NCBI RefSeq assembly: GCF_006345805.1
Contig: NC_043003.1
Span: forward strand, 57,412,001 to 57,476,000
Direction: 5' to 3'
Source of the DNA: Octopus sinensis
Lineage: Eukaryota
DNA length: 64,000 bases
Under the pieces are notes generated by a model. That model saw only the letters and a program-made list of their open reading frames with translations, made no database searches and was not told where the DNA came from. Below are positions 4,063-44,833 of this stretch, piece by piece. Position numbers and translations under genes: made by a program. Positions within the stretch are counted from its first letter, which is position 1. The number at the start of each line of letters is the position of its first letter.

Positions 4063-4069
4063 AGACATA

Positions 4070-4880: not shown

Positions 4881-4884
4881 CGCA

Positions 4885-5088: not shown

Positions 5089-5126
<38 letters not shown>

Positions 5127-5249: not shown

Positions 5250-5285
<36 letters not shown>

Positions 5286-5423
5286 ATATACATATATATA
5301 CATATACATATATATACATATACATATATGTATGTATATATGCATATATATACATTATATAAATGTATATATATACATATATACATACGTATATATGTGT
5401 ATAATATATATATGTGTGTATGT

Positions 5424-5474
<51 letters not shown>

Positions 5475-6662: not shown

Positions 6663-6694
<32 letters not shown>

Positions 6695-6805
6695 ATATAC
6701 ATATATATACATATACTTATATACATATACATATATGTATTATATATGCATATATATACATTATATAAATGTATATATATACATATATACATACGTATAT
6801 ATGTG

Positions 6806-6844
<39 letters not shown>

Positions 6845-8924: not shown

Positions 8925-9278
8925 ACACCGTTTTTTGTGCTGTTGGCGTTTCGGCGTTTCAGTCGAGTGTAATAGCATTAATGTGGTAACATTGTAGATT
9001 TTGTCATGGTATATGCTTGGCTGATGAAGATAGAACAAGATTATGGGTGGCAGACATATCTTGTAAAATCTGAAACCTGCAGGTCCCACATTATCCTTTT
9101 CAGGTATTTCATCTTTCAGATGTTCTCCCTGGAGGTAAGACAATTTTTTCTAGTTTGTTGCACACACGCATTTTTGCTAATACATACGCGGTGAAGCTAT
9201 ACATTAGCGTCGTATTATTACGTTCGCTATTTCCAGTAAATATCGGTACTTAGTTGTGCCATATATTTACTACTTTGT
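8925..9278 (+). mobile_element. Short hammerhead-containing element ending in (TA)n
   Basis: Bounded by microsatellites; contains the HHR at 9018-9088 and a gctatttccagt motif shared with other HHR-type elements. Confidence 0.6.
9018..9088 (+). ncRNA. Type I hammerhead ribozyme, intact core
   Basis: UGG-CUGAUGA-AGAU..ACAAGAU/AUCUUGU..AUCU-GAAA-CCUGCAGG-UC-CCA; palindromic helix III; predicted cleavage after C9085. Confidence 0.85.
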
Positions 9279-9295
9279 ATATATATATATATGAC

Positions 9296-9503
9296 CTCGT
9301 GTGTACCGTTGGCGATTTTTTCCTCTGTCTTCCCTTCTCTGGATCTTTCCTTCTCCTACGTTTCCGACGAAGAGCTCTGCTCGAAACGTTAGACCCTCCT
9401 TCTTTCCTTCTTTCCTTCTTTCCTGAGCGTCCAATAATACTATATTTGTTCCACGTCCTCGCGTTGTTGTGTTTTTTTGTGCTTTCTTGTTTGGATTAAC
9501 TTT
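9296..9503 (+). mobile_element. Penelope-like 3' end with minimal hammerhead variant (9360-9394)
   Basis: GUUU-CCGACGA-a-GAGC ucu GCUC-GAAA-CG-UU-AGAC; pyrimidine-rich tail ends in (TA)n; homologues at 4885, 6293, 29900 and 61590. Confidence 0.65.
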
Positions 9504-13187: not shown

Positions 13188-13709
13188 ATATATATATATA
13201 TATAATAAATATTATATATATGCATATGTGTATGTATATTTATACATGTATATATCTGTAACTTATATTAAATATATTATATATTCATACATATCTATGT
13301 ATAAGCATGCATGTATGTGAGGATATTTTTTAAGCTTTGATTAAATATTAGAGATATCGAATTTAAATTTTGATTCAATTTAGTAGCCATAAAATGTCAG
13401 TATCCAGTTTATATCTATTCTTTGAATCTATCTCGCCTGCCACACGAGATTCTCCGATATTCCTTAGGTCATAACCCAGAGCTGTATGAAGCTTTATAAA
13501 TATCGTTTATTATTTTATATCTATTGATCATTAAGCATATCTTTCACGTCTGAAATTTTCAATTTCATTATGATTTTGAAAATACTATACATGATACTAA
13601 TATTAGTAGAATATTGTATAGAAAAACAGCTAATATCTTCGGTTTGAAAATTTTGAATTAATTAAAGTATACACTTTATATACACGAATCCAAAATAAGG
13701 AAATGTGTA

Positions 13710-14204
13710 CCGTAAATCCTCGTGTATAATCCGCATTTTCTCCCAAAATTTAAAGGTCAAAATCCCTAGTGCGTACTATATACGAGGTTAAAAATGAAAA
13801 TTATTTTCTAAGCAATGTCCGAGTCTCTATTTGCTGTCCGCATTTTGTGATGTAGGACGTGGAAATACCCTAAGCTAAGCCTGAAAGCAATGAAGTCATA
13901 AAAGAATCATCAATGACTTGCAGTAAGCAACTTTTATTAAACGTTATTACTGTTATTTCTTTATTTTCTGCAAACAAAATGCACAAAAAAAGTTACATGT
14001 TTGCATAATGTTATATATACAATAATAATAAAGGACGTTACCGTATATAGTTTTTTACAAACCAAGAATGTTATATAGACCTCCTTGACTCAAGTTAGAG
14101 AAGGGGCACGTATTATACACAAGGTTTAGGTTTTTCAGAGTACAGCTCCCTAAAAATCCCCTGCGTATTATATTCAAGGGCGAACTATACTCGAGGATTT
14201 ACAG
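13710..14204. mobile_element. Tc2/Kanga-like MITE
   Basis: TIRs ccgtaaatcctcgtgtataatccgc / gcgaactatactcgaggatttacag; TA on both sides. Confidence 0.85.
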
Positions 14205-14276
14205 TATAAGATTGTGCATTTTTGAACAATCTTATACTGTAAATCCTCGAGTATAGTTCGCCCTTGAATATAATAC
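14165..14276. repeat. Perfect inverted repeat, 51-bp arms and 10-nt spacer
   Basis: 14165-14215 is the reverse complement of 14226-14276. Confidence 0.9.
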
Positions 14277-14731: not shown

Positions 14732-14752
14732 TATATATAATATATATATATA

Positions 14753-15266
14753 CCGTAAATTCACGAGTATAATCCGCATTTTTTTCCAAAACTTTAAAGG
14801 TCAAATTCCCGAGTGCGTACTATATACGAGTTAAAAATGAAAAATATTTTCTAAGCATGTCCGAGACTCTATTTGGTATCCGGCAATGTTTATTCAGGCG
14901 CATTTGTTGTGTCGGGCGCGAAAATACCTTAGCTAAGCCTGAAACAATGAAGTCATAAAAGATCATCCATAACTTGCAGTAAACAACTTTATTAAAATAA
15001 AAGTACTCAGAACACAGAATAACATGTAACAAAAACATTTGCAAACATATTTACATTCCCATATAACAGTTAAGAACAACACCATTATTATATTACGCAT
15101 GTGCGGAAGTGTTTGTTCGACTAGGCGCTTCTGGCACAACTGCGCACGACTCAAGTTAGAGAAGGGGTGCGTATTATAGACAAGGTTTAGGTTTTTCAGA
15201 GGTACAGCCCCTTAATAACCCCCTGCGTATTATACTCAAGAGCGGACTATTCTCGAGGATTGACGG
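14753..15266. mobile_element. Tc2/Kanga-like MITE in (TA)n, same family as 13710-14204
   Basis: TIRs ccgtaaattcacgagtataatccgc / gcggactattctcgaggattgacgg; shared internal sequence. Confidence 0.85.
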
Positions 15267-15298
<32 letters not shown>

Positions 15299-15559: not shown

Positions 15560-15821
15560 GTCATTCAAATAGCTCTTTTGTCTTAGCAACGGTCAATCAC
15601 ACAGTAATTTCCATTTGGTTAACGGTCATTTTCATATCATTTTTTCCGAAGGCCGGATAACTCAAGAGATAGCGGCGTGGATTTCCAGCCCGACATCCGA
15701 AACTCGAAGTTTTATCATGGTTACCGAATAATTGTCACATATTATATTTACAGATAAATTCCTCTATTTACATAATATCGAGGTCCCTTTCATTCTTTTG
15801 TTGTCTTACCATTTCTATCAA
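15560..15821 (+). mobile_element. Penelope-like 3' end related to 35180-35345, HHR highly degenerate
   Basis: Tail cctctatttacataatatcgaggtc...cttttgttgtc matches the reverse complement of 35185-35232; ccgaaactcgaagt resembles an HHR 3' half; ends in (TA)n. Confidence 0.45.
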
Positions 15822-15834
15822 TATATATATATCC

Positions 15835-16230
15835 TTTCTATTATAGGCAGAAGGGCTGAAATTTTTTTGGGAGGGTGGGGTGCAGTCGATTAGATGACCC
15901 CCAGTACATAACTGGTACTTACTTTATCGACCCCGAAAGGATGAAAGACAAGTCGATCCCGGCGCAATTTGAACTCAGAACGTAGCGGTAGATGAAATAC
16001 CTATTTCTTTATTACCCACAAGGGGCCAAACACAGAGGGGACAAACAAGGACAGACATAGGTATTAAGTCGATTACATCGACCCCAGTGCGTAACTGGTA
16101 CTTAATTTATCGACCCCGAAAGGATGAAAGGCAAAGTCGACCTCGGCGGAATTTGAACTCACAACGTAACGCAGACGAAATACCGCTAAGCATTTCGCCC
16201 GGCGTGCTAACAAGTTTGCTAGCTCGCCTT
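15835..16230 (-). mobile_element. SINE family B, two stacked copies
   Basis: atcgaccccgaaaggatgaaaggcaaagtcgacctcggcggaatttgaactc. Confidence 0.8.
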
Positions 16231-16309
16231 TTACGTGTGTGTGTGTATGTGTGTGTGTGTGTGTGTGGTGTGTGTGTGTGTGTGTGTGTGATGTGTGTGT
16301 GTATTCTTT

Positions 16310-16700
16310 TAACTGTTGCAGTCATTTAACTGCGGCCATGCTAGAGCACCACCTTGAGGTGTTTTAGTCGAACAAATCGGCTCCAGGTATTATTTATTTA
16401 AAACCTAGTACTTATTCTATCAGTCTCTTTTTGCTGAACGGCTAAGTTACGGGAACCTAAACACTCCAACACCTCTTGTCAAGCGGTGATAAGGGTGACA
16501 AACACGAACTCAAAGACACACACACATATAGATTTATAATTTATATACAACGGGGTTTTTTTTCAGTTTCTGTCTACCAAATCCACCCACAAGGCTTTGG
16601 TCGGCGCGAGGTTATTGTAGAAGACACCCAAAGTGCCACGCAGTTGCACTTGACCCAGAACCATGTGGCTGGGAAGCAAGCTTCTTACCACACAGCCATG
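16310..16700 (-). mobile_element. Composite SINE family A (tail, microsatellite, head)
   Basis: Reverse complement of the organisation at 26080-26535. Confidence 0.8.
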
Positions 16701-17703
16701 ACTGTAAGTATGTGTATATATGTGTGCGTGTGTGTGTGTGTGTACATGTACGTATATGTTATTATTTAACAAAATCATTATTGACATTGTCCTGTGCTGG
16801 CTAAGATGGCTAGAACTTCGAAGTCACTGCCAAGACTAATAAAGACTGTTAAAGAATAATAAACTTGCACTCTACTAAAAGTATTGAGTAATCCTTCAGG
16901 TGAATGCAAAATTGTTTTATTTCGACATATAAACAAACTTTAACATACACACACATATTTATATATATATAATATATATATATATACACACACATGTATA
17001 TATATATATATATATATAGAATATATATATATATATATGTATGTATATATATATACATGTGTGTATCTATATTATATCTTATATATTTACACCCATACAT
17101 ATATGCATACAAATACATACGTGACGTTGGTGTGGTGTATGTTTGTGTGTGTCTGTCTGTGTTTGTAATGCTCTTCACGATGCTAAGAAGCTAAAGCATT
17201 CTGGATTTAACTTGAATGACGCTACTTTCTTACTTGTGCATTTAATCCAAGATGGCAATAACTTTCAATCGATGTAATGCTGCAAGTAATGAAATATATA
17301 TTAATCTTTCTTTTTTTTTTTCATTTTCATTTTCGTAGACAGAGAATTCGTAAAACTACATTACAGAATATTATTAGCGGTATTGGCATGTATATTATAT
17401 AGTAAAAGCTCAATAAAAATTTATCCTTATTTTGTCTGTTTCAGCGAACTTATTAATAATTCAACATGTGTTTACTTTAACTTAGCAACTATAAAACATT
17501 CATCGAGATGTAATTTTACATAATATGTAATGACGTGTGTAATAATAGCTCTATAGTAATTTAAACAGATTTCTTCTATTCAAGCTTTTCTTACTGATAG
17601 ATTGTATTAAAATAATTATGAGTACATTAGCTTAGTCAGTAGCACAACTTTTTGATGATTTACCTGTAAGCCAGAATATATACGTCAATGTTTCATATAT
17701 GTT

Positions 17704-24855: not shown

Positions 24856-25370
24856 TCATGTGTACATAAGTGGTAATACGTGCTGTACGTATGTGTTTCT
24901 ATGCATAATTATATTTCTGTGAGTTTGTGCTCGTGTGTGCGTACGAGTAGAAGTGTATATAATCTACGCCTGATAGGTAGGGAAAGATGGTGGCCATTTA
25001 AAGTTTGCTCCAAAAGCTTGTTTCACATTTTGGCGCACGCTCAGTAATTTTGAAGAAAGGGACAGTCTATTACATCGGCCCCTTATTTTATCGAATCCTA
25101 AAAGATGAAAGGCAAAGTCCACCGAATATTGGCCACTATTGAGTGAAGTATCTCACACAACGTAGAAATTCTATATCTCTCTCACATCTTCCTTCGTCTC
25201 TCACACATACAAACTCACCCGATCACATTCGATTTGGATCTCCACATCACTCAATGTTTCTCGACGTCCTAGATCTTTCTCTCATTTTCTATACCTTTCT
25301 CTTTCCTCCACCGTTTTCTATATCTTTCACTTTCTACTATTTTCTGTATATATATATATATATATATATA

Positions 25371-26054
25371 ACATTATATAATTAGGGCTTAGTAAAATAA
25401 ATTACTTTGCCACATACTGAACTTAGTAGAAATAGCAGCCAAAAAAAAATTTATTAGCATTTCTACTACTTAAAGAAAATTTCTCTCAGATAATGTTTAC
25501 TCCAGACAGCTCACGAAGGTTTGGAGGTAAATACAGAAAAATATCACAAGTACATAGATCGTTTGAGTACGTCAACGTTTCAAGATTAGCCAAATAAAAT
25601 CAGCATTTCTGATTAGCCAAATAAAATCAGCATTGGAGTGGTTCATCTGAAGCGACAAGTTCGCTGATAGGTAAAGTTCCTTCTTTTTAGTGTTTCCAAA
25701 TCCAAATTAAGAATTTTGAGCTGACGAAAGAAATGCTGATTTTATTGGCTAATCTTGAAACGTTGACGTACTCAAACGATGTATTACTTGTGATATTTTT
25801 CTGTATTTACCTCCAAACCTTCGTGAGCTGTCTGGAGTAAACTTATCTGAGAGAAATTTTCTTTAAGTAGTAGAAATGCTAATAAAATTTTTTTTTGGCT
25901 GCTATTTCTACTAAGTTCAGTATGTGGCAAAGTAATTTATTTTACTAAGCCCTAATTATATAATGTAATATTTTGAATTCGCCTTAAATGGTCCTTTTAC
26001 ATACTGAACACTTGGTGAAATTGATTAATTAATTAATTTTACCCTCAATTGTTG
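25371..26054 (+). mobile_element. Fold-back hammerhead-containing element (Penelope-like inverted pLTR arrangement) in (TA)n
   Basis: 25371-25610 is the near-perfect reverse complement of 25729-25966; ~88-nt unpaired 3' tail; homologous to the 1006-2145 unit (ttggctgctatttct..aagttc.gt.tgtgg.aaagt; taaatggtc.tttacatac). Confidence 0.8.
25715..25776 (+). ncRNA. Type I hammerhead ribozyme, intact core
   Basis: UUUGAG-CUGACGA-AAGA..UCUU-GAAA-CGU ug ACG-UA-CUCAAA; 6-bp helix I; predicted cleavage after A25770 (GUA). Confidence 0.88.
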
Positions 26055-26079
26055 ATATATATATATATATATATATATA

Positions 26080-26285
26080 GGCGAAGGTGTGGCCGTGTGG
26101 TAATAAACTTGCTTTCCAACCACATGGCTCCAGGTTCAATCGCACTGCATAGCAACTTGGGCAAGTGTATTCTACGACAGCCGCGGGACTACCAGAGATT
26201 TGTGAGTGGATTTGGTAGACGGAAACTGAAAGAAGCCCGGCGTATATACATGTGTGCAAGCGAGTGTGTGTGTATGTGTGTGTGT

Positions 26286-26326
<41 letters not shown>

Positions 26327-26535
26327 GTTTTCCTCCTACCATCGCTTCACGATCGATATTAGTGCGTTTACGGCCCCGTAATTCAGCAGTTCGGCAAGAG
26401 AGGCCGATAAAATAGGTACTACGCTTACAAAGAATAAGTCCTGGGGTTGATTTGTTCGACTAAAAGTGGTGCTCCAGCATAACCGCAGTCAAATGTCTGA
26501 AAAAAGTAAACTAAAAACTAATAAAAGAATAAAAC
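26080..26535 (+). mobile_element. Full composite SINE family A: tRNA-like head, CORE-like block, internal (GT)n, tail
   Basis: A box tggccgtgtgg, B box ggttcaatc, acttgggcaagtgt similar to the CORE ccttgggcaagt, microsatellite at 26245-26328, tail ending in taaaa repeats. Confidence 0.85.
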
Positions 26536-26583
26536 AATATATATATATATAGTATGTATATAGGTGATATTATATATAGACAA

Positions 26584-26623
<40 letters not shown>

Positions 26624-27595
26624 ATGCACATGTGTATGTACATACATTTGTACTATATACTATATATGTATTATATATATATATATATTATATATATATA
26701 TATATTATATATATATATATATATACATATATATTGTGTTTGTTTTGTATTATATATGTGCCGCCTTCACCGAATTTCCCTCTTTCTCATGTTATCGCCC
26801 TTTATCTTTCTACCTCATTCTCTATATCCTTATATTTCTTTCCTTTTATCATTCAGTTTATTTATCTCCCATACTGATATGGCCAATGCCGTATGTTATA
26901 AAGCATTTTGAATGTAACTAGAAAACTTTATTTAAGGTTTTAAAAAAATCGAATCTGCTTCCGGTTTCGTTAATGCTCTCTTCAAACCACGCTCAAGTTC
27001 CTAATGCCACAGATGCTCGCGTCTATCCTACTTTTCTCACAGCTATCTATCTCTTTTTCTTTTTTTTTTCTTCTCCAATTCTCTGTATGTCACTCATCTT
27101 CCTTGTCCTCTTCTCTCCGCCACTGCCGCTTTTTTCCCCCCAACTCTTCACTAACAGGTTTGAAAAGTTATGTGAACATTTCAACCAAGACTTAGAAACA
27201 AAATGGCGTCAACTTCCTGTGTTATTATCGCTGTTTAAATTTTTCACTCATTTTCATTCATTTGTCTAAATTTACTTGACCTTTGTCTCCTTTTTCATAA
27301 ACTTCCTCCTACTTTCCTCTTTATCTCCACCTTCTAGAAACAGCCAAGAAAGCAACCAAGAACTTTACGAAAATAAAACTAAAATGGAGCTAGCTTCCGG
27401 TGTTATTACTGAAATTCATTAAATAGTAAAGAATCGATTCAAAATGGCTAGGTCATTCATATAGGAGTGAATACTGGATATATATATACGCACATATATG
27501 AATATGTGCGTGTTGTAAGTGTGTCTGAATACATGCATATATGTTTGTGTGTGTTTGTATATGCATGTGTGTATGTATGTATACATATGAATGTG

Positions 27596-27635
<40 letters not shown>

Positions 27636-27864
27636 ATGATGTATGTATGTATGAATGTTTATGCGTGAATAATATGTATACACACACCCAAAATTCGAAT
27701 AAGCATACACACTTGCACGCATGCGCACAATGCATACCCTCGCGCATTTAATTGGATTTCTCTATGCTTTGAGTCAATCACACATGTAGATTGCATCAAT
27801 CATTAGATTTTCAATGTAAATGTTCCTTTCCATATCAGCTACACTTGATAAATAGCATTCTTTT

Positions 27865-28046
27865 CGGCCGAGGGGGCAAGTCGATTAGATCGAAAGCAGA
27901 ATGTAACTGGTACTTAATTTATCGACCCCGAAAGGATGAAAGGCAAAGTCGACCTCGGCGGAATTACAACTCAGAACGTAAAGACAGACGAAATACTGCT
28001 AAGCATTTCGCCTGTCGTGCTAACGTTTCTGCCAGCTCGCCGCCCT
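27865..28046 (-). mobile_element. SINE family B
   Basis: Near-consensus core through gccagctcgccgcc. Confidence 0.8.
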
Positions 28047-28112
28047 TAATAAATAGTAATCTAGCAACTATGTATGTATGTATGTATGTATGTATGTATG
28101 TATGTATGTATG

Positions 28113-28187
<75 letters not shown>

Positions 28188-28294
28188 ATAACTAACTAAC
28201 TAACCAACTATCTATTTCTGTGTCTGTGTCTCTCTGTTTTCCTGGCTAACTAGCTAGTTAAATTGATGGGCAGACAGACGGACAAACGTACCAT

Positions 28295-28362
<68 letters not shown>

Positions 28363-28894
28363 AAGATAGATAGATAGATAGTAGATAGATAAGATACCTA
28401 CATACTTACCATCATAAATATATACATATATACACATATGCATACACCATCATGCATATATACGTACACACATACATAAACACACCTAATACATACATAC
28501 CCTCATACATACTCCCGTACATACACACATACATACGATCATACCTATATACACACATACATACATGCATACATACATACAAACATACGCCCCACACATT
28601 CACACATACATTCATACGCCCACACATTCATACGTACATACATACATACATACATACATACATACATACATACATACATACATACATACATACATACATA
28701 CGTACATACATACATAGCTATATGGAAAACATGGAAGAGTTAGCATGTTTACATGTCAAAACTCAGAAAGATAGGTTGATGGAAGGAGAGGGAGAGAGAA
28801 CGGTAGGTTAAGACAGGGTGAATCGGGGAGAGTGATGGACTGATTTCTTGAATATATTATCTGCCCCTTATGTATATCAACTTTCCAAATATAT

Positions 28895-29088
28895 ATTTCT
28901 TTACTACCCACAAGGGGCTAAACTTTGATGGGACAAAAAAGGACAGACGAAGGGATTAAGTCGATTACATCGACCCCAGTGCGTAACTGGTACTTAATTT
29001 ATCGACTCCGAAAGGATGAAAGGCAAAGTTGACCTTGGCGGAATTTGAACCCAGAACACGTAACGGCAGACGAAATACGGCTACGCAT
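28895..29088 (-). mobile_element. SINE family B
   Basis: ttctttactacccacaaggggctaaac...gaaaggatgaaaggcaaag. Confidence 0.8.
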
Positions 29089-29213
29089 TATATAACATGT
29101 CTAAATGTCTCCCGAAAACTCATTCGACAGCTAGCTAGAGACGGGAGTACACATACACATGTTCAAACGCATCCGTCAATGCCTACACACACACACACAC
29201 ACACAAACACACA

Positions 29214-29278
<65 letters not shown>

Positions 29279-29899
29279 CTTTTATCGACTATTAGACTGT
29301 GGCCATGATGCAGCACACATTCGAATGTTGTAGTTGAGCAAATGAAAATCAATACTTTTTCTTTTGTAAAAATTCTGGTACTAATTTTATTGGTCTCTTG
29401 TTGAAACACTATCTTACGGGGAGGTAATCTTACCAACACCGGCTGTCAAGTGCTGGTGCGTAAAACACAGTTAAACGCTCACACACACAAACACACACAC
29501 ACGCACACACACACACGTCAAATATATTTGTATGCATGTGAAGTAATGAATAAGGATATACATAGACGGAGCATACACACATACTTGTTCACTTCTTCAC
29601 ACACACACACATACACACGTACTCACCCATACACACACACACATACTCGTGAATACACACACGCCCACTCACATACATACATACATATATATATATATTA
29701 TATATATATATATATATACACGCATACATTATTCTCACACATACACACATGCTAACACTACACCCTTTAGCCAGGTCACCGTTGTGTCCCTTACCACCAA
29801 AGCCTCCAACCACATCCTTCCGGTCAATTCAACACGTGGAACCCTTAGTCCAAACAAATGTTTTTTTTTTGTTTTGTTTAGTTTTGTTTTTCTCTCTCG

Positions 29900-30065
29900 C
29901 CACTTTCTTCCTTTCTCCATGTGTTTCTCTTCATTCCTTTCTGCAGAAGAGCATAGGCTGGAAACTTCAAACACTTCTTCCATTTTTCCTCAGCGTCAAA
30001 CCTATACAAACTGTTTATTATTCCTCCTCCTGTCTCTGTCTTTTGTTTTTAGCTTTGGTATCATT
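29900..30065 (+). mobile_element. Degenerate member of the minimal-HHR 3'-end family
   Basis: ctgcagaagagcataggctggaaac...cctcagcgtc aligns with 9364-9432. Confidence 0.45.
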
Positions 30066-30070
30066 TGAAC

Positions 30071-30104
<34 letters not shown>

Positions 30105-30414
30105 CACACACACACACATACATACATACATACATACATGCATACATACATACATACATACATACATACATACATACATACATACATACATACATACATA
30201 CATACATACGTGTGTACGCGCAAAATGGTTATATTAATGATTAAGTTAGCTACTTTATCGTTGATCCAAAATTGCTTCTGGTGTTGTAATCTTCAGATGG
30301 TAAACCAACAAAAAATAGTTTTAACTTACAAGTATGCATACTGTACGACGGATAGGTCACGTGATTATCTTTGATTTATTATTTTTATATTTTATAATAT
30401 TAACCTCATTGTTA

Positions 30415-30715
30415 GCTTCTCTTTTATCGTTTATTTGTTTCAATCAATTGGCTGTAGCCATGCTGGAGCACTGCTCTGAAAGATTTGTAATTACTGTACT
30501 TATTCTATCAATGCCTTTAGCAGAACTGCTAAGCTACACGAGCATAAACAAATCAACAGCGGTTATGAAGCGCTGGAAGTGGTACAAATACAAAGATATA
30601 CTCACAATCATACACACATACACATGTCTGCATACATATACACATACATGCTAACGACATATATACGACGGGCTTCCATACAGATTCCGTCTACCAAATT
30701 CACTGACAAGGAATT
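30415..30715 (-). mobile_element. Composite SINE family A, degenerate
   Basis: gccatgctggagcac...tatatacgacgggcttcc..ttccgtctaccaaatt. Confidence 0.65.
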
Positions 30716-32044
30716 TGTAGTGGATCTTCCATGCATGAAGTGGATTCGATCCACCATAGCTAAATTTAAATTAACACTGCAACAGAACTTTTCCCACGAT
30801 GGAACAATGGTTTTTCTCTGACAGCAGTCTTATATTTTCCAGATGCCTTTAGCTAGGCCGAAATAATGTCTTCACCACTTGACGCTTTCTAACCTCTTCT
30901 ACTTCAACAAAAGATAAAATAGAGATAACAAGACCACCAACTAAATCTATTGTTCTCAACGATATGTTTATCCTTCTGGATAGCTATAAAAGCAAGAACC
31001 CCCAAGCAAACACTAAGTAGTCGCTTGGCGACAACTGAGCGAGGCAGCTCGTGACGCTTCAATTAATTAAGGAACGGACTGCTAGAATCATGCTCACAAG
31101 GAATACCTCTACTAAAGATAATGGTCAGCGAGAGAAATGAAATTTACTGTCAGCAACTGTGAGACAATATCCTACAACTCTCACTAGCTCTAATTCTGTT
31201 CTCTTACAACGTCATTCTATCTCTCTCCGCAATTACTACTAAACAATGAATAGAACCCAAACACAAACTTTACTTCGCATGCTTTTTGATTTATCATATC
31301 CTGCCCGTCGAGGCAAGGTATTGTAACGTAACGGTGAATAAATACTTTCTTGAAACTTCATGCATTGTCCATCTTTCACATCTTACAACTTGCCATCATA
31401 ACAACAAATTTTTATTGTTACAACTGCTGACTCCGTTACAAATTGATCATCTCGGGGCTAGAGTACAGTTGCTCAGGGTGGAGTGCAGTGGGACTGAAAC
31501 CGATACCAAAGGTTTTCTAAACGAGCTTCCTAACTATACAACCTGTCACATTGGTTATTAAAAATAGTTATTTCCAAAGCTACTTGGCGATTTTAGTAAG
31601 GGGATTTGGTAGTTTTGTTTGGCAATCTTAGAAGATTATTATCGGTTTTGAGTACTTGCAACGCAGTAACAACGTTGTAAAAGAAAAATATTTTATAAGC
31701 AGAGCTGCCAGTCTTGATAATATCTATATTCTGGAAGCCGTTCATGGATTTTGTCGTCAAACTGTTAATATTATCGAATTCCAAACACATTAAGAATGTT
31801 ATGTCTTCTACATCGTGTTATATAATCTAGTTATTGTCGACGGCCTTTCTCTTAAATAAAATCGGAAGTGTGAAGAAGAAAAGTCTTGCATGCATGGGCT
31901 TACACACTGTCTTTCTAAATGATCTTGCCGAAACCTGCGCCTACATATGAGAATACATATTCAGCCTTGACATTCTGAGACGCAAAGTCGATTGTTACCT
32001 AGGCAAGCTCAGCGTCTCGTACTACCGCAATAAGCAGCTTCCAC

Positions 32045-32076
<32 letters not shown>

Positions 32077-32137
32077 ATCTATATATATATATAATATATA
32101 TATATATATAATATATATATTTATATATATATATTAT

Positions 32138-32717
32138 GGATATGAGACGTTTTGGCGCAGTCCCTTTGGCGCCGCTGATTTGGTGCTGCTGGTTTCCCGC
32201 CTTTCTCTCTTTTCTCTCCCTCTCTCTCTCTCTTTCTCTTCACTTAATGTGTATGAGGAGTGATAATGGTTATGTCAGTCGTATTCATTTAAATTAGTCA
32301 CTCGCCTTTGCTTTCTCTCTCCCCCTCTCTTTCTATCTATCTATCTATCTATCTCTAACTCATACACAAACATACTCTGTGTGTAAGCATATTTATGTGT
32401 GTGAGAAGAGGGAATTCTGTTCAATTAATAAGTTGTAACGCCTCTCTCTTTCTTTCCCTCTCTCTCAATCTTTCTCTCACTTTCTCTCTCTCAATCTCTC
32501 TCACTATCCATATCTCTCTCTATTTCTCTCCTTCTCTCTCTAATTCTCTCTCTATATATATCTACCTATCTATCTGTATGCATATATTTCTGTGTGTGCG
32601 TGTATGCGTGCGTTTGTCCACAGTTTAAAACTAGACTGTCGCTAAAACAGGCCGAATGCCCGGTGGGCTGTGTGAACGCGCCAGTGTCCAAACAACTGCG
32701 CCCAGTCATCTTATTCC
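32138..32717. mobile_element. Putative TIR element with ~15-bp GC-rich subterminal repeats; partial reverse copy at ~60430-60695
   Basis: ggatatgagacgttttggcgcagt versus actgcgcccagtcatcttattcc; the internal ttgtaacgcctctctc region is shared with 60445-60460 in reverse. Confidence 0.5.
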
Positions 32718-33329
32718 TATATAATATGATATGTGCATGTGTGTGTATGTGTGTGAGGACAAAATATGATCCCCTAAAGAGCTCGTATTTACTAACAAGA
32801 TACCACATAGCCCTTCACCTATCACTCGCCTCAGCCACCACAATTTTACTCCTCGCCGTCAGCTTATCATACCTTCAGCACCAGAAACAACAACAGCGCC
32901 ATATAGCAACATAGTTTCAGGTCTTTAGTACGGAAACCTGCCAGTGACACATGTCGAGTTTTCTGGGTTATCATTGCTACGACCGAACGATCGTCAAGCT
33001 CGAACAAAATCTGCCCACCCGTTCAATCCGGCGGGTGGGTTTAGCAGAACGATTTGACAGTTTCCATAATATAACAGCTTCTCTCTCGACCTTTCACCGT
33101 CGTACACATACAGATACTCACATATACACATGCAGATATACAAATGCACACACGTATAGAAATATAAAATACACGTTTAATCACATACGTAAATACAATA
33201 TAATGCGCGCACACACACACGTATATACACAAATTGCGCCTTTGTCTATCACCCTTCAATTTTATGGGTCAGTAACTCCTTCACGTCTGTGTCGTTCCAC
33301 CCCACCCTCTTTATCGTCATCAAAGGACG

Positions 33330-33750
33330 AGTCGATCGTGGTAGTAATAGTGGTAACGATATCATTGATGGTGGTAGTGTTGCGGGTGGTGGTGGTGCCG
33401 ACGATGGTGGTGGTAATGATGATAACGATGATGATGAGCATCATGATGATGATCATCAGGATGACGATGTTGGACGTGGTGGTTGGGTGAGGTTGGTGAC
33501 ACTAACGTAGCGTTGGTGATGATAGTGGTGGCTGAGGTAGTGCTGGTGATGGTAGTGACGATATTAGTGCAGATGCAGGTAATGGTGGTGGTGGTGGCGA
33601 TCGTGTTGCAGTAGTAGTGATGTAGATGATGGTATTGGTGGTGGAGTTTGTTATTATCGAATTCCTAGTGGCGAGTGCTTTTGATGATGGTAATGATGGT
33701 AGAGTAGGTGATGCTGGCGGTATTCGTGGAATTGATGATGGTACTGTTGT
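33330..33750. repeat. Degenerate (GGT/GAT)n trinucleotide region
   Basis: Low-complexity tract read directly. Confidence 0.85.
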
Positions 33751-33880
33751 TCTAATAGTGTTTGTATAGCTTTTGAAAGACGCCATGTATATATATATAT
33801 AAAGTATATGTGTGTGTGGTTGTGATACATATATATATATATATATATTATATATATAATATATATATATGTATATATAT

Positions 33881-34235
33881 AATACAGTGTACATCTAAAC
33901 ATATAAGAGGTATCCATCATAGGGATCCCTTACGCTAGACGGAACAGCTAAAGTCCAAACCACTAATTTGGGATAAATTAGTCAGAAAAAAGTCAGAAAC
34001 CATGGTCCAGGAAATAGATGGTAAATGTTTATATTTTCCATTCCCTTCGAGATTTTATCCCTAATTAGTGGTTTGGACTTAAGCTGTTCCTTCTAGCGTA
34101 AAGGAGTCTTATGATGGATACCTCTTAATGTGTTTAAATGTACACTGTATTTTATATGAATAATATATAGTCTATAGACTAATTTTTCTATACGCTAGGC
34201 CACTGGTAGTAAAAATTTCTAAAATCTTTATTACC

Positions 34236-34238
<3 letters not shown>
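33881..34238 (+). mobile_element. Fold-back element in (TA)n with HHR 3' half only
   Basis: 33881-33980 is inverted at 34053-34151; GAAA-CCAUGG-UC at 33996-34007; 87-nt tail. Confidence 0.7.
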
Positions 34239-34269
<31 letters not shown>

Positions 34270-34272
<3 letters not shown>

Positions 34273-34490
34273 TCTATTGTAGGCACAAGGCCTGAAACTA
34301 AGGAGGAGGAAAGTCGACTACATCCATCGTAGTCCACAACTGCTACCTTTTTTTCTTTTGTATCGATCTCGAAAGGATGGAAAACAAGGTCGACCTCCCG
34401 ACATTTGAACTCAAATCAGAATGTAATGAAAGACGAAATGCCGCTAAGCATTTTACCCGGCGTGCTAATGATTCTGCCAACTCGCCTTAT
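34270..34490 (-). mobile_element. SINE family B
   Basis: aggcacaaggcctgaaa...gccgctaagcattttacccggcgtgctaatgattctgcc. Confidence 0.7.
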
Positions 34491-35119
34491 GCTTCCCCTG
34501 CCCTAACACGTGACCGGTGTCTATTGAAGGCAGTGTCGTCCTTTTTCGCCCTGCCTGGACTGATCGTGCTGGTCGGTGTTCCAGCTACGTCCTTTAGGAC
34601 TTAAACCATGTCACCCTACGCTACCGCACTTAGTTCGTTTGATAGCTACAAAGCTCATTCTGTTGTATTTGAGGTATTTGTATAATTATTATTTTTTCTT
34701 CTTGTTTTATATAGCTGTAAGGCTTCGCGTTGTTATATATGCATAATTCTTCGCCTGTTGTATTTATATATGCCTTTCTTGTTTCTATCTCAGTATACAT
34801 TCGCTGACTCTTTCCCAGTAGAGTAATAATAGTACTGGCACCACCAAGATTGAGTGGTCTTAATGATAATGGTCCGAAATCACGATGATATTTTGTTCAT
34901 TGACTGACGAGGAAAATTCAGCTGCGAATATTCCGTGTATCGTGTCCTTGTCTATATTACCCGTCTTTTAAGTTTTCGTCTTGTTTCCTGTTTGCTCTGC
35001 TTTCCTATATATATATGTGTGTGTGTGTGTGTTTATGTGTATACATATATATACATATATATATATACATATATACATATATATATATAAACATACATAT
35101 AATTATCAGTATATATGTG

Positions 35120-35177
<58 letters not shown>

Positions 35178-35179
35178 CT

Positions 35180-35345
35180 GATAAAAAGTGACAACAAAAG
35201 TATGAGACCTCAATATTAGGTAAGTAGAGGATTATTTATATATGTAAAATTTGGGACAAACAGTAAGTTGTCATCATAATACTTGGAGCTTCGAAAGTCG
35301 GAGCGAAGAGATACGATGCATTCTTGTCGGCTATGAATGGCAATA
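35180..35345 (-). mobile_element. Penelope-like 3' end with degenerate HHR (~35273-35337)
   Basis: Minus strand: UCAUAG-CCGACAA-GAA..UUC-GAAG-CU cca AG-UA-UUAUGA; helices are retained but the core is mutated; ends in (TA)n. Confidence 0.55.
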
Positions 35346-35569
35346 GATAAACTGTTGAATAAAAATGGAAGTTACTCTAATAGATAGAAAGAAAAACAGA
35401 AAAAAAGAAAAGGCTAAAATATACACGCAACCATAATCTCACAATACATAGACATAAACCCCCTGCGTTCCTAACGTCTACATACGTACACACCCACAGA
35501 AACATACATGTACATGTATGTACTCATACATAGATACATATCCATAAAAAGATCTCTACGAGCAGATCT

Positions 35570-36200
35570 AATCCTGATTCGTCAAAAATACTGATGACGT
35601 ATTACCTCAGTGGGCAAGCTATTGTCACCCTGCTTGGTCGGTTTCCCCACACGATACAGCTATGAGTCAGATCCGATTCTGATTGGTCAAAACATTGATG
35701 ACGTCTCGTTCCGCTGGACTAGCCACCTAACAGGATACAGTCATGGGTCAGATCTAATACACCTTTAGGTCAGACCCGATTCTGATTGGCCAAAACATTG
35801 ATGACGTCTCGTTCTGTTGGACTAGCCACCTAACGGGATGATTGGTCAAAATATGAATGACGTCTCGTTCTGCTGGACGAGCCACCAAACGGGTTGATTG
35901 GTCAAAACATTGATGACGTCCCGTTTTGCTGGACTAGCCACCTAACGGGATGATTGGTCAAAACATTGATGACGTCTCGTTCCGCTGGACTAGCCACCTA
36001 ACAGGATACAGTCATGGATCAGATCTAATTTCGATTCGCCAAAAAAAAGGATGACGTATTTCTCCCGTGGCCAAACCGTCGTTCCGCTTGATCTGTTTCC
36101 TAACAGGATATATTCGTTGAGACTGGGTTTTGATTGGTTTGGAACTATATGACGTCAGTGAAAAGTGCAAGTGAGACAGCTAAGCTGAGCTGATATAAAC
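35570..36200. promoter_or_regulatory. Minisatellite of about 8 CCAAT-box plus CRE-like modules, followed by TATAAA
   Basis: gattggtcaaaacattgatgacgtc repeats in ~56-105-bp units; perfect TGACGTCA at 36150-36157; TATAAA at 36194-36199. The repeat is clear, the regulatory function is inferred. Confidence 0.5.
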
Positions 36201-36319
36201 CTAAACAATCACAAAATTCACCAAAACTATACGAACAGACACCAACCAAAAATCATTACAGTTGCTCCCATTGGAACACAAGGTAAAACCTAAAATGAAC
36301 TCCTCGCTTTTTCAAGAAC

Positions 36320-36506
36320 ATGAATTTTTTATATTTGAGTCTATTGAATGCATGTCACAATTATGTACTACTACATCATACTCTTTAAACATATAGCATG
36401 GACTCGCTTTAATATATATGAATTTTTTATATTAGACTCTATTGAATATATGCCACAATTATGAACTATTACATCATACTCTTTAAACATATAGCATGAA
36501 CTCTCT
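36320..36506. repeat. Tandem duplication, ~98-bp unit
   Basis: tacatcatactctttaaacatatagcatg occurs twice. Confidence 0.85.
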
Positions 36507-36635
36507 TTTTTATATATAATTTTTTTTTTATAAGGTTCGTCATTTCAAGAACCAAAACATGTTAAATAAATAATGTATATATAAAAATTAAAATTTGTCT
36601 AATATAGCAGCATTTTCAAACTTCATTTTTTACAA

Positions 36636-36669
<34 letters not shown>

Positions 36670-36692
36670 ATGTGTGTGTGTCTGTGTGTGTA

Positions 36693-36726
<34 letters not shown>

Positions 36727-36900
36727 AGTCCACGGAACTTCATCCTCATATACACATAGCTGTCTGCATCCATGCTTATATATTTAGACATTTATACTTA
36801 TAAATATAGTGTATATATACAGGCATACTTTCACACTCCCGCAGATACGTATCTACATATATACATGTACAGATATATGTATGTATGTGTGTATAGATAG

Positions 36901-36982
<82 letters not shown>

Positions 36983-36987
36983 GGATG

Positions 36988-37045
<58 letters not shown>

Positions 37046-37334
37046 CATGCACATCTTTCTATTACACACCTACAACCGCAGATATACAAGTATATGCATA
37101 TCCCTACAAAAGAAGGGGACGTGTGCATGAAAGTCGCACATGTGCACCAGACAGTCTTACACTCATATACATACGTATACTCATACACATATATACACAC
37201 GCGCACGCATATACATATAAAATATATACATACCTATACATATACTCACACACGTACGCATTCACACAATTAAAAAGTAAAAATGAAAAATATATGTATA
37301 AAAATAAAAAAATTGAAGACATTCTTTTTTCTTA

Positions 37335-37617
37335 ATCTTTTTTACTTGTTTCAGTCATTTGACTGCAGCCATGCTGGAGCACCGCCTTTAGTCGAGAAAA
37401 TCGAACCCAGGACTTATTCTTTGGAAGCCTAGTACTTATTCTATCGTTGTCTTTTGCCGAACCGATAAGTTATGGGGACATAAACACACCAGCATCCACT
37501 CACAAGGCTTTATTCGGCCCGAGGTTATAGTAGAAGACACTCGCCCGAGGTGCCACGTGGTGGGACTGAACCCGGAACCATGCGGTTCGCAAACAAGCTA
37601 CTTACCACACAGCCGCA
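37335..37617 (-). mobile_element. SINE family A lacking its internal microsatellite
   Basis: The tail joins the head directly at acaccagca|tccactcacaagg. Confidence 0.8.
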
Positions 37618-38240
37618 TGGAAAGTTTGTGCAGGAACATACTAAAAATTCGGATTCTATCCGTGATCATGGAGTGGGGGCCAAAACCGTAACAGGTATTT
37701 TGTCACATGTGGACATGACCCAAAAAGTTCGACGTTAGTGCAACACCCATCACGGCTAAGCCACCTCACTCACGCATAAATACGCGCGCGCGTATATGTA
37801 CACTATTTATTATTATACTCATGTAATCACGAATTTAGGAATATGGGGGTGGAAAATGAACAGACTCACTAATATAACTCGAAACATTATAATGTTTACC
37901 AAGTCTTTATTCACGTTACCAAATTCGCTGTTTGCTCAAGATTTTCCTTCTCGAAACAGGTTTATAAATGTTTACTGCTTTATAACTTATCTGCTAAATC
38001 CCTGATCTTACTTGTCTTTCTAGTTTCACAGATAATTAGCTGGAACCAGTAAAAGGATTTAAAAAGTAAATCGTCAGCTAGTTAGCACTTGTCGGACAGG
38101 TTAGTTCAAACAAATTCAATCAAGGTAAGACATCACACACATTCATTCTAAGTTTGCAGCACTGAGCATAACTCACCGAAAATGGAATATAGAATCTATC
38201 GAAATGTGTTGTGTATGTGTGTGTATATATATATATACAT

Positions 38241-38519
38241 AAATTATAATTTAGGGTGTCTAAGAGATACCTCCACACTGGAAATAGCAGCCAAAACTTG
38301 ACTCTAAAACCAAATTAAATGTTTATACAGCACCACTCTCCTGGTGCTGTATGAACAGTTAATGTGGTTTTAGAGTCAAGTTTTGGCTGCTATTTCCAGT
38401 GTGGAGGTATCTCTTAGGTACCCTAAATTATAATTTTAATAATATTTCCTTTGAGGGATTTTATTCCCATGCTGGCCACTTGATAAGATCGATATTTAAA
38501 TCAACGATCTTATCCTTTA
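38241..38519 (+). mobile_element. Hairpin-form element in (TA)n: 95-bp arms, 6-nt loop, ~82-nt tail
   Basis: 38241-38335 is inverted at 38342-38436; contains ttttggctgctatttc and ccctaaattataat, as in 25371-26054. Confidence 0.75.
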
Positions 38520-38799
38520 TATATATATATATTTAAATAATGAGGGAGATAAATTGAATATTTATTTGATTAATATCAATTTAAAACCAGTTGCCTAGTA
38601 TATAAAAAATCTGAAAAATTAGAGAAAATGTCAATACATGTGTATATTTAGAGCTAAAAATCCACTATGTGGACAGCCATATGCTAGAAGAACATCACAT
38701 ACGATCTAACTACAAAGAAAGAATGTTCTCCAGAGAAAATTCAGCGAACACCAGAACATAGGCGGGTAAGTCATGAAAATTACATAAAAATCAATAATT

Positions 38800-38875
38800 A
38801 ATCGTATACCGGTTTCTTCTATTACCGAATAAATTACTTACGTAATCCTTCGTCCGTAGATTCATCAATGCGATC
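38800..38875 (-). ncRNA. Degenerate type I hammerhead in an element ending at (TA)n ~38531
   Basis: Minus strand: GAUCGcA-uUGAUGA-aUCUA..UAGAa-GAAA-CCGG-UA-UaCGAUU; C3U core change. Confidence 0.6.
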
Positions 38876-39164: not shown

Positions 39165-40114
39165 CGAGGAGGTATCATAAAGTTGCTGGTCTAGTTCTGT
39201 AGCGCGCCAACAGATGGTAGCACACGGCTGCGTGCGCAGTGAGAGGTAGCAGTGACCTTCATGAGACAGTGTACTGAGTGACATCGTGGAGAAAATTCAT
39301 CAGCTTGTGCATGAGGAACATCGGACGACAACCAGCGACATTGTTAATGTTGTTTGTCTGCCGTATAGGTCCGTGCGAGCAATCCTAACATCTGGATTCT
39401 TCACGATGACAATGCACCCTGTCACCGAGCCGTTCTCACTCGTCAGTTACTCGCCAAAAAACGACATGGTATCGCTTCTGCTCCCGCGCTATTTGCCAGA
39501 TTTAGAAACCTGCAGACTTCTATCTCTTGCCCAAGAGGAAAATGCAGTTCAAAGGTTTCCCTTTTGATATCGTTGTAGAGATCGAGAACGAATCGCCGAT
39601 GGCCTTCCACTTGCTTACGGAAAACGACTTCCAGGCCGGATTTCAAAATTGGCAGGAACCCTGGGTCCAGTGTATTGCTGTGCAACGTGACGATATTGTT
39701 GATGTTGTTTGTCTGTAGTATGGGTCTGTTCGAGCAATCCTAACATCTGGATTCTTCACCTCGACAATACACGCTGTCACCGAGCCGTCCTTACTCGTGA
39801 GTTACTCGCCAAAAACGATATGGTATCGCTTCTGCTCCCGCCCTATTTGACAGATTTAGAAACCTACAGACTTCCATATCTTGCCCAAGAGGAGAGTGCC
39901 GGTCAAAGGTTTCCCCTTTGATATCGTTGTAGAGATCGAGAACGAATCGCCGATGGCCTTCCACTTGCTTACCGAAAACGATTTCCAGGCCGGATTCCAA
40001 AATTGGCAGGAACCCTGGGACCAGAATATTGCTGCGCAACGTGACTATTTCGAAGGAGATGCTGTTAAAACTTATTAAACATAATGAGTTCAGGAACCTT
40101 TTAATGCCAACTCG
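39165..40114 (+). mobile_element. Mariner remnant with tandem duplication of the catalytic C-terminal ~352 bp
   Basis: WILHDDNAPCH and YLPDL (YSPDL-like) motifs occur twice; imperfect cgagg...ctcg ends; frameshifted. Confidence 0.8.
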
Positions 40115-42494: not shown

Positions 42495-43656
42495 CGTTTG
42501 TGTGTGTGTGGGCGAGTGTATTAAAGACAATAACATAATTTAATTTTAACAGAAATACGTCACCTGAATTTAGAGGAATACACATGGAGCTCTAAACGCT
42601 GGTTAATTATCGATCAATTTAAATAACTATCTCCCCCTCTTTCTCTCTCTCTATATATATATATGTGTGTATGTATATATATATATGTGTGTATGTGTAT
42701 ATATATATATATATTATATATATAATATATATATATATGCATCTCTATATATATATGTAATTTAGCCCCAGGAGACATCGTCTCCAGCTCCCTATACGAC
42801 ACGATCTGTGTCCTTGCATTTTCGAACAAGGGAATCTAGCCCACAAAACAATACCTGTGAATCATGATTTCTGGGTTATTTCACTTCATCCAGAACTGCC
42901 ATGTTAATATGGCAAACAATCTTAACTACAAAGTACTGTTGCTGAATATCTCACGTTCTGAGATTTAAAAATAGTAATTTTCTAATCATTCATAGAGTTC
43001 GAATGAAAAATATTTTGAAATGAAATAACACATTATAGAAAAGCGAAAGAACACAAAGAAATAAACAAACCAACTAATATTTGAGATGTTGTATGCTATA
43101 CCAACAAAACAATGAAGAGGTCACCACAAGAAAGTAACATTTATCAGCGTAGTCAACAAACCCCAATGTATAGCAGCAGTACTTGACCTCCTGTTGAGCT
43201 CAGAATTTACTGAAGATAGTAATGCCTTAAAGGAAATCAAACACAAACATGTACAAACCCATCCTTAAAATCTGCTGAATGAATAGCAAAATAAATCCAG
43301 CAACACCACACACACTTCCATCCGTATATAACTACCATTCTTTCCTCTATTCCCATCAACTTCAGCTTCTCCCCCACCAAATACACACAGAAACACCCGC
43401 ATAACCCGTTTGCCCTTAAGACTGGTAAAAAGAGGAAAACATCCTTCGTTGGTTCATCTACTAATGAGAAATCGCCTGAAGAAATGAATAAATGATGATG
43501 ATCAACCGGAAGCTCACGGATAATACAGACTACACTGTAATCATCCCAGGAATACGGACTGTGATCTTAAAAGTCACGTGATTTGTGGAAACGCAGGTAG
43601 CGATGCATTAAATACTTATAAATTCCATCCTAGGATTATTATTATTATTATTATTA

Positions 43657-44665
43657 TTTTTTTTTTTTTTTTTTCTTCTTTCAAATATGCTTCCATTTCT
43701 TGCCGAGTGTCTTCCCGACTCCTAGGGCAAAGAAACTCATAGGTACATTGGTAGGCCATTAGACTAAACAATAGTTCGTTCATTTTTTTTTTTAAGTTAA
43801 ATAAAAATACATGAGCAGCAACAGTTCTCACATCGACAATGCTCTTCTCAATACGTGTGAGGTACCAGTTAAGACAATCTTTTGCACTTCTTGCAGGGAT
43901 GGTAGCCAGGGATCATTCTCATATAATTTTCGGTTCCCTTCTTGGTCATTCCTAGTGCTCCTACGATCAACTGGTATTGTAACCGCCTTGAGATGCCACA
44001 TTTTCTCAATTTCAATGAGTAGGTCTTTATATTTTTCTGAGCTTGTCAAACTCTTTCGCTGAGATATTATGATCACAGGGGATGCTCATGTCAATCAATA
44101 AGCAAACTTTATTGTTTTGTCTTTCACAAACAATATCTGGTTTATTGGCCTTGATGGTTCGGTCTGTATGTACTGGAAAGTCCCACAGAATCGTTACATT
44201 TTCTCCTTCAGTTACAGCCTCAGGGTGGTGATTATACCACTTGTTGGCAGTTTTGATATTGTAATGCCGACTTATTAGCCAGTGGAGATATTGGCCAACT
44301 CTGTCAGGTCTTAATTTATACTCCACTGGTGCTAAGACTTTACATCCAGAGATTAGGTGGTCCACTGTTTCAATCATGTCGTTGGCAGAATCGGCATTTT
44401 GGGTCTGCTCCATTTTTCATCACATTGGCCTCGTAGTTCCGGGTTAATAGGCTTTGATCTTGAGCAGCCAGGATGAAACATTCGCTCTCTGCTTTTAGCC
44501 CTGAGCTCCGTAGCCACTGATGGGTTTGCTTCTGGTCAACATCAGCTTGTTTGCTGCGGGTCACATATTTGCCGTGCAGAGGTTTCTCCTCCCACCTATC
44601 AGCCAATTGCTCGTGCGCTTTTTTCATTGCCATCATTTTCACCTTCTTTGCAACAATAGTTGCCG
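43657..44665 (-). pseudogene. 5'-truncated R4/Dong-type non-LTR retrotransposon (zinc knuckle and restriction-like endonuclease)
   Basis: Frameshifted ORFs with KPLHGKY, AAQDQSLLTRNY, CRFC..ETVDHLISGC and WDFPVHTDRTIKANKPDIV..LLIDMSIP..KE..K..KY; poly(A) followed by (TAA)n. Confidence 0.9.
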
Positions 44666-44833
44666 TAAGAGTGCAGTGCATGTCAGATAAGTGACACTGG
44701 GGTAAAATATACGAAGCCCAGTATACCCATCATGGCTATACGTCTGATAAGGGTACATCAGGCACATCACAGCTTATTTTGCTGGGTACGATGGAAAGTA
44801 TAAATGTCCACAGCAAACACACTAATCATATAC

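Follow-up and report, generated by a model that had tools for sequence, protein, structure and literature searches.

The window analysed here, a 64,000-nucleotide stretch of Octopus sinensis DNA (NCBI RefSeq assembly GCF_006345805.1, contig NC_043003.1, positions 57,412,001 to 57,476,000 of the forward strand, numbered below from its first letter), is rich in microsatellites (183 tandem-repeat rows, 18.6% masked) and in dispersed repeats, and no recognisable gene was found among the open reading frames (ORFs) scanned in it. It contains three fold-back elements, termed E1, E2 and E3, in which an inverted copy precedes a direct copy that carries a 3′-tail. A sequence-only reading had described these elements as lying in (TA)n with a nearly constant unpaired tail and had ascribed them to Penelope-like elements (PLEs). 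The three fold-backs, with arms of 240, 97 and 95 nt, were confirmed by alignment, and TA runs flank all of them; a related fold-back (E0), a decayed relative (E5) and a probable further relative (E6) were also identified. A conserved RNA fold at the 3′-end of these elements appears to set an 80–88-nt tail, which separates two copying start sites.

E1 (25371–26054, +) is a 5′-truncated PLE-type insertion in (TA)n, composed of an inverted arm, a spacer, a direct copy and a tail. The inverted arm (25371–25610, −), which extends from a TA-like patch to the inside of a hammerhead stem II, matches the direct arm (25729–25966) at 240 positions of a 245-nt local alignment (~98%), and in the 118-nt spacer a stretch of 24 nt at the inner junction (25611–25634, −) is re-copied by a template slip. 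The tail (25967–26054, +) measures 88 nt by the strict definition, or 83 nt if the arm is read through one mismatch; the (TA)n flanks occupy 25347–25370 and 26055–26079. E2 (33881–34238, +) comprises an inverted arm of 97 nt (33881–33977), a 76-nt spacer, a direct arm (34054–34151) with ~90% identity and a tail of 87 nt (34152–34238; 81 nt through one mismatch), between an imperfect TA run at 33829–33880 and a (TA)n flank at 34239–34268. In E3 (38241–38517, +), the arms (38241–38335 and 38342–38436; 90 of 95 positions matching) meet over a 6-nt loop and are followed by a tail of 81 nt (38437–38517; 80 nt through one mismatch). E0 (1006–2145, −), the related fold-back, holds 1.85 copies of a 558-nt unit in partial tandem (2041–1483 and 1482–1008), which differ by single-base indels, while the shorter copies of the family have no tandem; its inverted arm (2042–2145) likewise starts at the TA-like patch. 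E5 (38533–38862, −) has no inverted arm and a provisional 5′ limit, and E6 (9015–9277, +), the register of which is uncertain, seems to stop at (TA)n close to the position of the patch and is probably tail-less. Inverted repeats in the window were searched for using BLAST after the microsatellites had been masked. The 3′-ends of E3 and E5 face each other across a single short run of (TA)n (38518–38532), and this arrangement suggests repeated insertion into one target.

The three fold-backs had been counted as independent measures of tail length, a treatment that is contradicted by their kinship. An exact 16-mer common to E0, E1 and E3 has six exact copies in the window, and seven matches were obtained with up to three mismatches against 0.52 expected. 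Alignment z-scores for arm plus tail, measured against dinucleotide shuffles, were 14.6 for E1–E0, 6.5 for E1–E3 and 3.5 for E3–E0, and 3.1, 0.7 and −0.1 for E2–E3, E2–E0 and E1–E2, respectively. A leave-one-out sequence profile pointed to E5 as a fifth member, which aligns with E2 (z = 5.3), E1 (3.9), E3 (2.9) and E0 (1.7) and thus bridges E2 and E1. The last 95 nt of E6 align with the E3 arm at z = 5.1 and rank third of 403 TA-flank controls, with only the E3 and E1 arms higher. Judged by these alignments, E0–E3 and E5 are diverged relatives of one family, of which E6 is probably a sixth member, and four of the six members in the 64 kb carry inverted arms. Two weak profile matches (30448–30495 and 30224–30265) were inspected and discarded, and a 26-letter shared pattern was found at no locus in a scan of bacterial and archaeal genomes.

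In E1, a descriptor scan located a type I hammerhead with all three stems at 25721–25770, with no match in 30 resampled windows under the strict null; the motif as a whole spans 25715–25776 (+), with stems I, II and III of 6, 4 and 5 bp and a predicted cut after 25770. The strict scan gave two other matches, a partial or decayed motif in E6 (9021–9085) and a weak one at 19252, and a relaxed scan added an intact hammerhead in E0 at 1729–1680 (−). A second E0 motif at ~1175–1125 (−) lacks one base, possibly through a consensus error, and the hammerhead of E5 (38856–38807, −) is degraded. In E2, the 3′-half of a motif can be read from the sequence at 33996–34007 (+), with its GAAA box, palindromic stem III and GUC site, the 5′-half having been lost by truncation. 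The stem II region of these hammerheads is 29–44 nt, unlike the minimal form, and the predicted cut lies 196 nt from the arm start in E1 and 197–202 nt from it in E0, and 192 nt from the end in E6. The orientation of the motifs gives the sense strand of the elements. A hairpin stands directly upstream of the hammerhead in both E1 (25645–25675, +) and E0 (~1830–1760, −), and the two differ in sequence.

Published accounts of PLE anatomy describe a hammerhead in the terminal repeat, a partial tandem arrangement, a 5′ inverted truncated copy, a one-sided tail and insertion at (TA)n (PMC3846280, PMC8557442). The present elements show sense-strand hammerhead motifs (E1 and E0), a partial tandem (E0) and a 5′ inverted copy (E0–E3), together with an optional, one-sided tail that is present in E1–E3 and absent from the arms and, probably, from E6; a tail of 80–88 nt does not match the 30–40 nt that is typical of PLEs but does not define them. 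The assignment to PLEs made from sequence alone is thus upheld by the same-strand hammerhead motifs and the E0 tandem, and on these non-coding features the elements are very probably Penelope-like. The clades are told apart by protein features (a clade-specific RT-EN protein for Hydra, a CX2-5CxxC linker and the RT phylogeny for Neptune), and no ORF has survived here; Hydra and Neptune, the latter compared by its reported features, fit best, and Naiad is a poorer fit.

The sense-3′ termini fall into two clusters, designated P1, the TA-like patch at the arm start, and P2, 3–12 nt beyond a terminal hairpin. Each of the inverted arms (E0–E3) starts at P1. In every one of these elements, the 20-nt window that is most TA-like overlaps or adjoins the arm start, and windows centred on the arm start itself are equalled or exceeded by 1–20% of windows, depending on the element and the boundary. 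At P2, the ends of E2 and E3 lie 3 nt, that of E1 11 nt and that of E5 ~12 nt after the terminal hairpin (34205–34235, 38482–38514, 26014–26043 and 38583–38550, respectively). Among the 10 sense-3′ termini of the six members, five are at P1 (the four arms and E6, the latter less sure), four are at P2 and one, the direct end of E0, which is not at the terminal hairpin, is elsewhere. P1 and P2 are separated by ~80–88 nt. For three independent uniform draws, the probability that the arm-start distances of E1–E3 would span 7 nt or less is 0.0019, and this rises to 0.038 if they are counted as two independent lineages. The tail length is also somewhat fuzzy, since the arms begin in TA-like sequence that matches the flank too, and the E2 tail can shrink to 69 nt in a gapped alignment. 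In E0, the arm joins a flank resembling a short interspersed nuclear element (SINE) at P1, where 4 nt of microhomology and a re-copied stretch of 11 nt are found, so P1 was used there without a (TA)n neighbour. The direct copy of E0 starts within ~5 nt of the position equivalent to P1 (2036–2041, −), and P1 may thus also be close to a promoter or to the 5′-end of an RNA; in A. vaga, the pseudo-long terminal repeat (pLTR) reportedly includes a TATA-like box (PMC3846280).

Folding and aligning the tails, as the sequence-only reading had proposed, revealed a shared 3′ domain in E0–E3. When the four elements were folded separately, the same long-range helix of 8–12 bp was predicted between the arm region and the middle of the tail, with pairing probabilities of 0.93–0.98: 25915–25925 with 25999–26009 in E1 (+, 11 bp, probability 0.98, enclosing the TA-like patch), 34093–34100 with 34191–34198 in E2 (+) and 38396–38404 with 38467–38475 in E3 (+). 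This helix around the TA-like patch is followed by a short linker and then by the terminal hairpin, which has 9–13 bp in E1–E3 with pairing probabilities of 0.98–0.99. The tail, which had been called unpaired, is so only within the DNA palindrome; in the RNA it is predicted to form structure (z −2.4 to −3.0) and to base-pair with the region of the arm. The folding z-score of the whole domain is −3.0 to −5.8, a value reached by none of 150 shuffles in each of E0–E3, and the sense fold is better than the antisense fold in three of the four elements. In an alignment of E0–E3 anchored on the long-range helix, 38 of 40 cells are paired and 7 of 10 columns have changed on both sides, compared with 11–22 of 40 cells in slid controls, and a column shuffle attains the observed value at a rate of 0.0003; these figures are not clean probabilities, because the anchors were picked after the folds had been seen and only four related sequences were available.

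Two checks that lean less on this anchoring gave concordant results. RNAalifold applied to a plain MAFFT alignment recovered the terminal hairpin alone, with nine pairs, four of them compensatory, since the 5′ strand of the long-range helix is put out of place by MAFFT; 91.7% of the terminal hairpin cells are paired, with none of 500 shuffles as high. Of the unmasked positions in the window, 3.2% have a perfect 9-bp hairpin that closes in the last 12 nt. When only E0 and E1 were used to build a covariance model, it aligned E3 such that the two helices were both in register (E = 1.8e-9). These predictions indicate a 3′ RNA domain that is conserved and covarying across E0–E3, and the constancy of the tail is to be attributed to shared ancestry and the conserved predicted fold and not to three independent measures. 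Two further measures were rejected as evidence: a generic helix-plus-hairpin descriptor, which recovered E2 and E3, missed E1 and E0 and returned about 12 unrelated, mostly repeat-derived matches, and the count of G–U pairs (9 of 99), which is biased by construction. An extra hairpin lies just 5′ of the long-range helix in E1 (25868–25913, +) and E0 (~1578–1546, −); in E0 the apex of this hairpin is the end point of the direct copy, and the inverted arm stops near its base.

In addition to the post hoc anchoring and the small number of sequences, several observations weigh against this interpretation. The near-constant tail holds in E1–E3 (88, 87 and 81 nt), and the arm-start measure in E0 gives 470–472 nt, with a direct end that is not at P2, so that three of four elements fit. 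Taken modulo the 558-nt unit, this end precedes the arm start by 86–88 nt, or the first-primed position by 83 nt, an offset with a ~4% chance under a uniform model that was noticed post hoc; the exception may reflect a later deletion or a ruler running the other way. The terminal hairpin of E0 is not significant by itself (z +1.26 and −0.97), the minimum-energy fold of E5 keeps the terminal hairpin without the long-range helix (z −0.84), and the E0 and E1 covariance model gave only E = 0.93 for E2 and E = 1.7 for E6 and missed E5. At the level of sequence, the leave-one-out profile missed E2, a five-member profile did not find E6 (E = 10) and MAFFT places E6 in another register. Pfam searches, which covered 150 of the 305 candidate ORFs of the window, found no reverse transcriptase (RT) or GIY-YIG remnants, and Rfam searches of E1 and E0 gave nine and seven weak matches, respectively, without a hammerhead. 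Finally, genomic copies cannot tell P1 as a start from P1 as an end of synthesis.

The sequence-only reading took the tail to be longer than that of Drosophila Penelope, and it is: 80–88 nt here compared with 34–37 bp in D. virilis (PMC2377424), 31 bp in Pen2a of Adineta vaga (PMC3846280) and 30–40 bp in PLEs generally (PMC11167929, PMC8557442). In other respects, the elements resemble Penelope/Poseidon PLEs in their 5′ inverted truncated copies, partial tandem, optional one-sided tail, pLTR hammerhead and AT-rich targets, and, on the reading favoured here, in a tail that corresponds to the distance between two RT start sites, as reported for PAc of Anolis (PMC11167929); these PLEs differ from them in their tails of 31–40 nt. 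PAc starts in an AC-rich stem-loop within the ORF, whereas P1 is TA-like and lies where no ORF can be recognised. Hydra-clade PLEs (PMC8557442) also insert at (TA)n and have a canonical type I hammerhead close to their 3′-end, with stem III forms similar to those of E0 and E2, but their distance from cut to patch is ~30–47 nt, compared with 144–202 nt here. Inspected by eye, three of six novel Hydra consensi end 36–47 nt past the cut and three ~89–116 nt past it, and Hydra-1_Crog has a TA-like patch 71–88 nt before its end (PMC8557442); longer tails may therefore already be present, unremarked, in the Hydra clade, which provides a lead. An exact-match search of the supplement of Craig 2021 returned none of 12 window motif terms. 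Neptune PLEs are similar in the microsatellite insertion bias and the hammerheads reported for that clade. Naiad PLEs share the (TA)n targets and the tandem, inverted and tail anatomy (PMC8557442), but they have no canonical hammerhead, whereas E1 and E0 have all three stems, and no motif match to the Naiad consensi was obtained. The non-coding 558-nt tandem unit of E0, with a type I hammerhead motif per copy, also recalls metazoan non-LTR retrozymes (PMC7229834; bioRxiv 10.64898/2026.07.22.740005) and falls inside their range of 51–972 bp; retrozymes have two or more consecutive units, each with a complete type I hammerhead, whereas E0 has fewer than two units, one apparently damaged ribozyme copy and an inverted arm, and the other members are monomer fragments.

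We regard it as reasonably probable that these elements are 5′-truncated non-coding insertions of one (TA)n-targeting, hammerhead-bearing PLE lineage, in which the fold sets a two-site tail. PAc, the protein of a Poseidon PLE and a dimer by prediction, was shown in vitro to cut the two target strands, to extend each of them and to begin reverse transcription at two sites on the RNA, the interval between which is the tail (Frangieh 2024; PMC11167929). By analogy with this biochemistry, the RT-endonuclease of the element would bind the 3′ domain and cut both strands of the (TA)n target; one target end would prime at P2 and yield the direct copy with its tail, and the other would prime at P1, its TA end pairing with the TA-like patch, and yield the inverted copy without a tail. 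The two cDNAs would halt at variable points and join at their inner ends. The length of the tail would be the path length of the 3′-half of the fold, which, on this proposal, is why the tail survives sequence divergence at about twice the usual 30–40 nt. The inverted arm of E1 crosses the predicted ribozyme cut into stem II, which is consistent with the uncleaved template reported for PAc (PMC11167929). That a second site, for priming or nicking, lies at a set distance, as the sequence-only reading had envisaged, fits the data, but is largely published already (Frangieh 2024; PMC11167929). A bolder version, which we consider quite improbable, would make the 3′ domain a protein-bound scaffold like telomerase RNA, with the TA-like loop as an internal template for the cut (TA)n and a dimeric RT with starts ~85 nt apart, E0 representing the opposite register.

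The arms could also have arisen by single priming at P2, after which the cDNA folds back, copies itself and is nicked or end-joined at the patch, so that P1 would be a site of resolution. We hold this to be rather doubtful. Precedent for it exists: tails have been credited to endonuclease-mediated resolution (Craig 2021; PMC8557442) and junction palindromes taken as self-priming (Arkhipova 2013; PMC3846280). It would account for why the inverted arms invariably use P1, the patch is similar to the sequence that the endonuclease itself targets, and the E3 arms meet over only 6 nt. However, E6 is apparently a direct copy that ends at P1 with no partner arm, the spacers of E0–E2 (76–460 nt) show no clear self-priming hairpin by eye, and in vitro both strands are extended by PAc, with two start sites on the RNA (PMC11167929). 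Between these two, E6 favours two-site priming, and the strict use of P1 by the arms together with the E3 loop favours single priming.

The remaining explanations are much less likely. Host replication can switch templates, and arms could have been added after insertion if a nascent (TA)n strand switched to the internal patch, copied backwards and returned, in which case the fixed distance would merely be the position of the TA-like patch. The TA-like sequence and microhomology at the arm starts and the slip-type duplication at the inner junction of E1 are in keeping with this; it is nevertheless very unlikely, given that arms occur on four of six family members within 64 kb, that the many SINE-like copies close to TA runs showed no arms of this kind in the masked inverted-repeat scan, that the E0 arm adjoins a SINE-like repeat instead of (TA)n, and that PLEs regularly yield 5′ inverted copies (PMC3846280, PMC8557442). 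About as little credit can be given to non-autonomous DIRS-like elements, to fold-back elements or miniature inverted-repeat transposable elements (MITEs), or to Helitron-type elements with an extended right end. Inverted repeats, in DIRS elements with an internal complementary region, and 3′ hairpins do occur in these groups, and a Helitron ends in a 3′ hairpin followed by CTRR. However, no internal complementary region was detected in E1 or E2 (eight of eight comparisons were within the shuffle range), the arms are not flush at both ends as in MITEs or fold-back elements, one lying 80–88 nt internal, and their inner ends vary, the hairpin is present but the ends are not CTRR, and the hammerhead motifs are on one strand. 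Chance agreement or an assembly fold-back artefact is extremely unlikely: the sample is small and the E0 repeats differ by single-base indels, a sign of a possibly noisy long-read consensus, but the arms are 90–98% and not 100% identical, they begin at homologous sites in four elements, and the structure covaries.

Elsewhere in the window, another (TA)n-flanked fragment of 211 nt without an inverted arm (9293–9503, +) contains a minimal hammerhead-like motif with one core change (9364–9390) and probably represents another PLE family. Translation of E0–E3 revealed no recognisable coding remnant; the Pfam search of 150 ORFs gave weak DDE_3 and Dcc1 matches only, and among the 150 of 562 whole-window Rfam matches listed, all were microsatellite-driven. 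The DDE_3 transposase match (39703–39918, E = 0.0019) lies inside a tandem duplication of 354 bp with 90% identity (39336–40048). A 1.4-kb tandem duplication with 95% identity at 3886–6844, together with the indels of E0, suggests a noisy long-read consensus or a haplotype duplication. At least two abundant SINE-like repeat families (65–90% identity) are represented at 150–912, 2150–2487, 15820–16705 and many more places. A TA-flanked, MITE-like element with terminal inverted repeats (14751–15270) has a relative at ~13700–14276 that includes a 112-nt palindrome (14165–14276), and a 76-nt imperfect palindrome lies in microsatellite sequence at 60016–60091. A 5′-truncated non-LTR-like fragment at ~43640–44830 (−), which we take to resemble R4/Dong, ends in poly(A)/(TAA)n and shows, by eye, C-terminal zinc-knuckle and endonuclease-like motifs, with no Pfam or PDB match.

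The formation of PLE inverted copies and tails is mostly open, one full-length protein having been studied in vitro (PMC11167929). The two-site mechanism is largely known; the new part is the long tail with its covarying 3′ RNA domain, and literature searches returned no report of a PLE tail of 80–90 nt or of such a fold. A lineage in which the tail is about twice the usual length and a covarying fold brackets both termini presents a concrete cis-element, and it would help annotators to place the ends of these abundant fragments. Were the telomerase-like scaffold true, the microsatellite targeting, tail length and inverted copy of PLEs would be joined in one RNA structure, and the RNAs of PLEs would be tied structurally to that of telomerase. 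If the proposal that the fold sets the tail is true, tail length in PLEs would be a lineage trait set by RNA structure.

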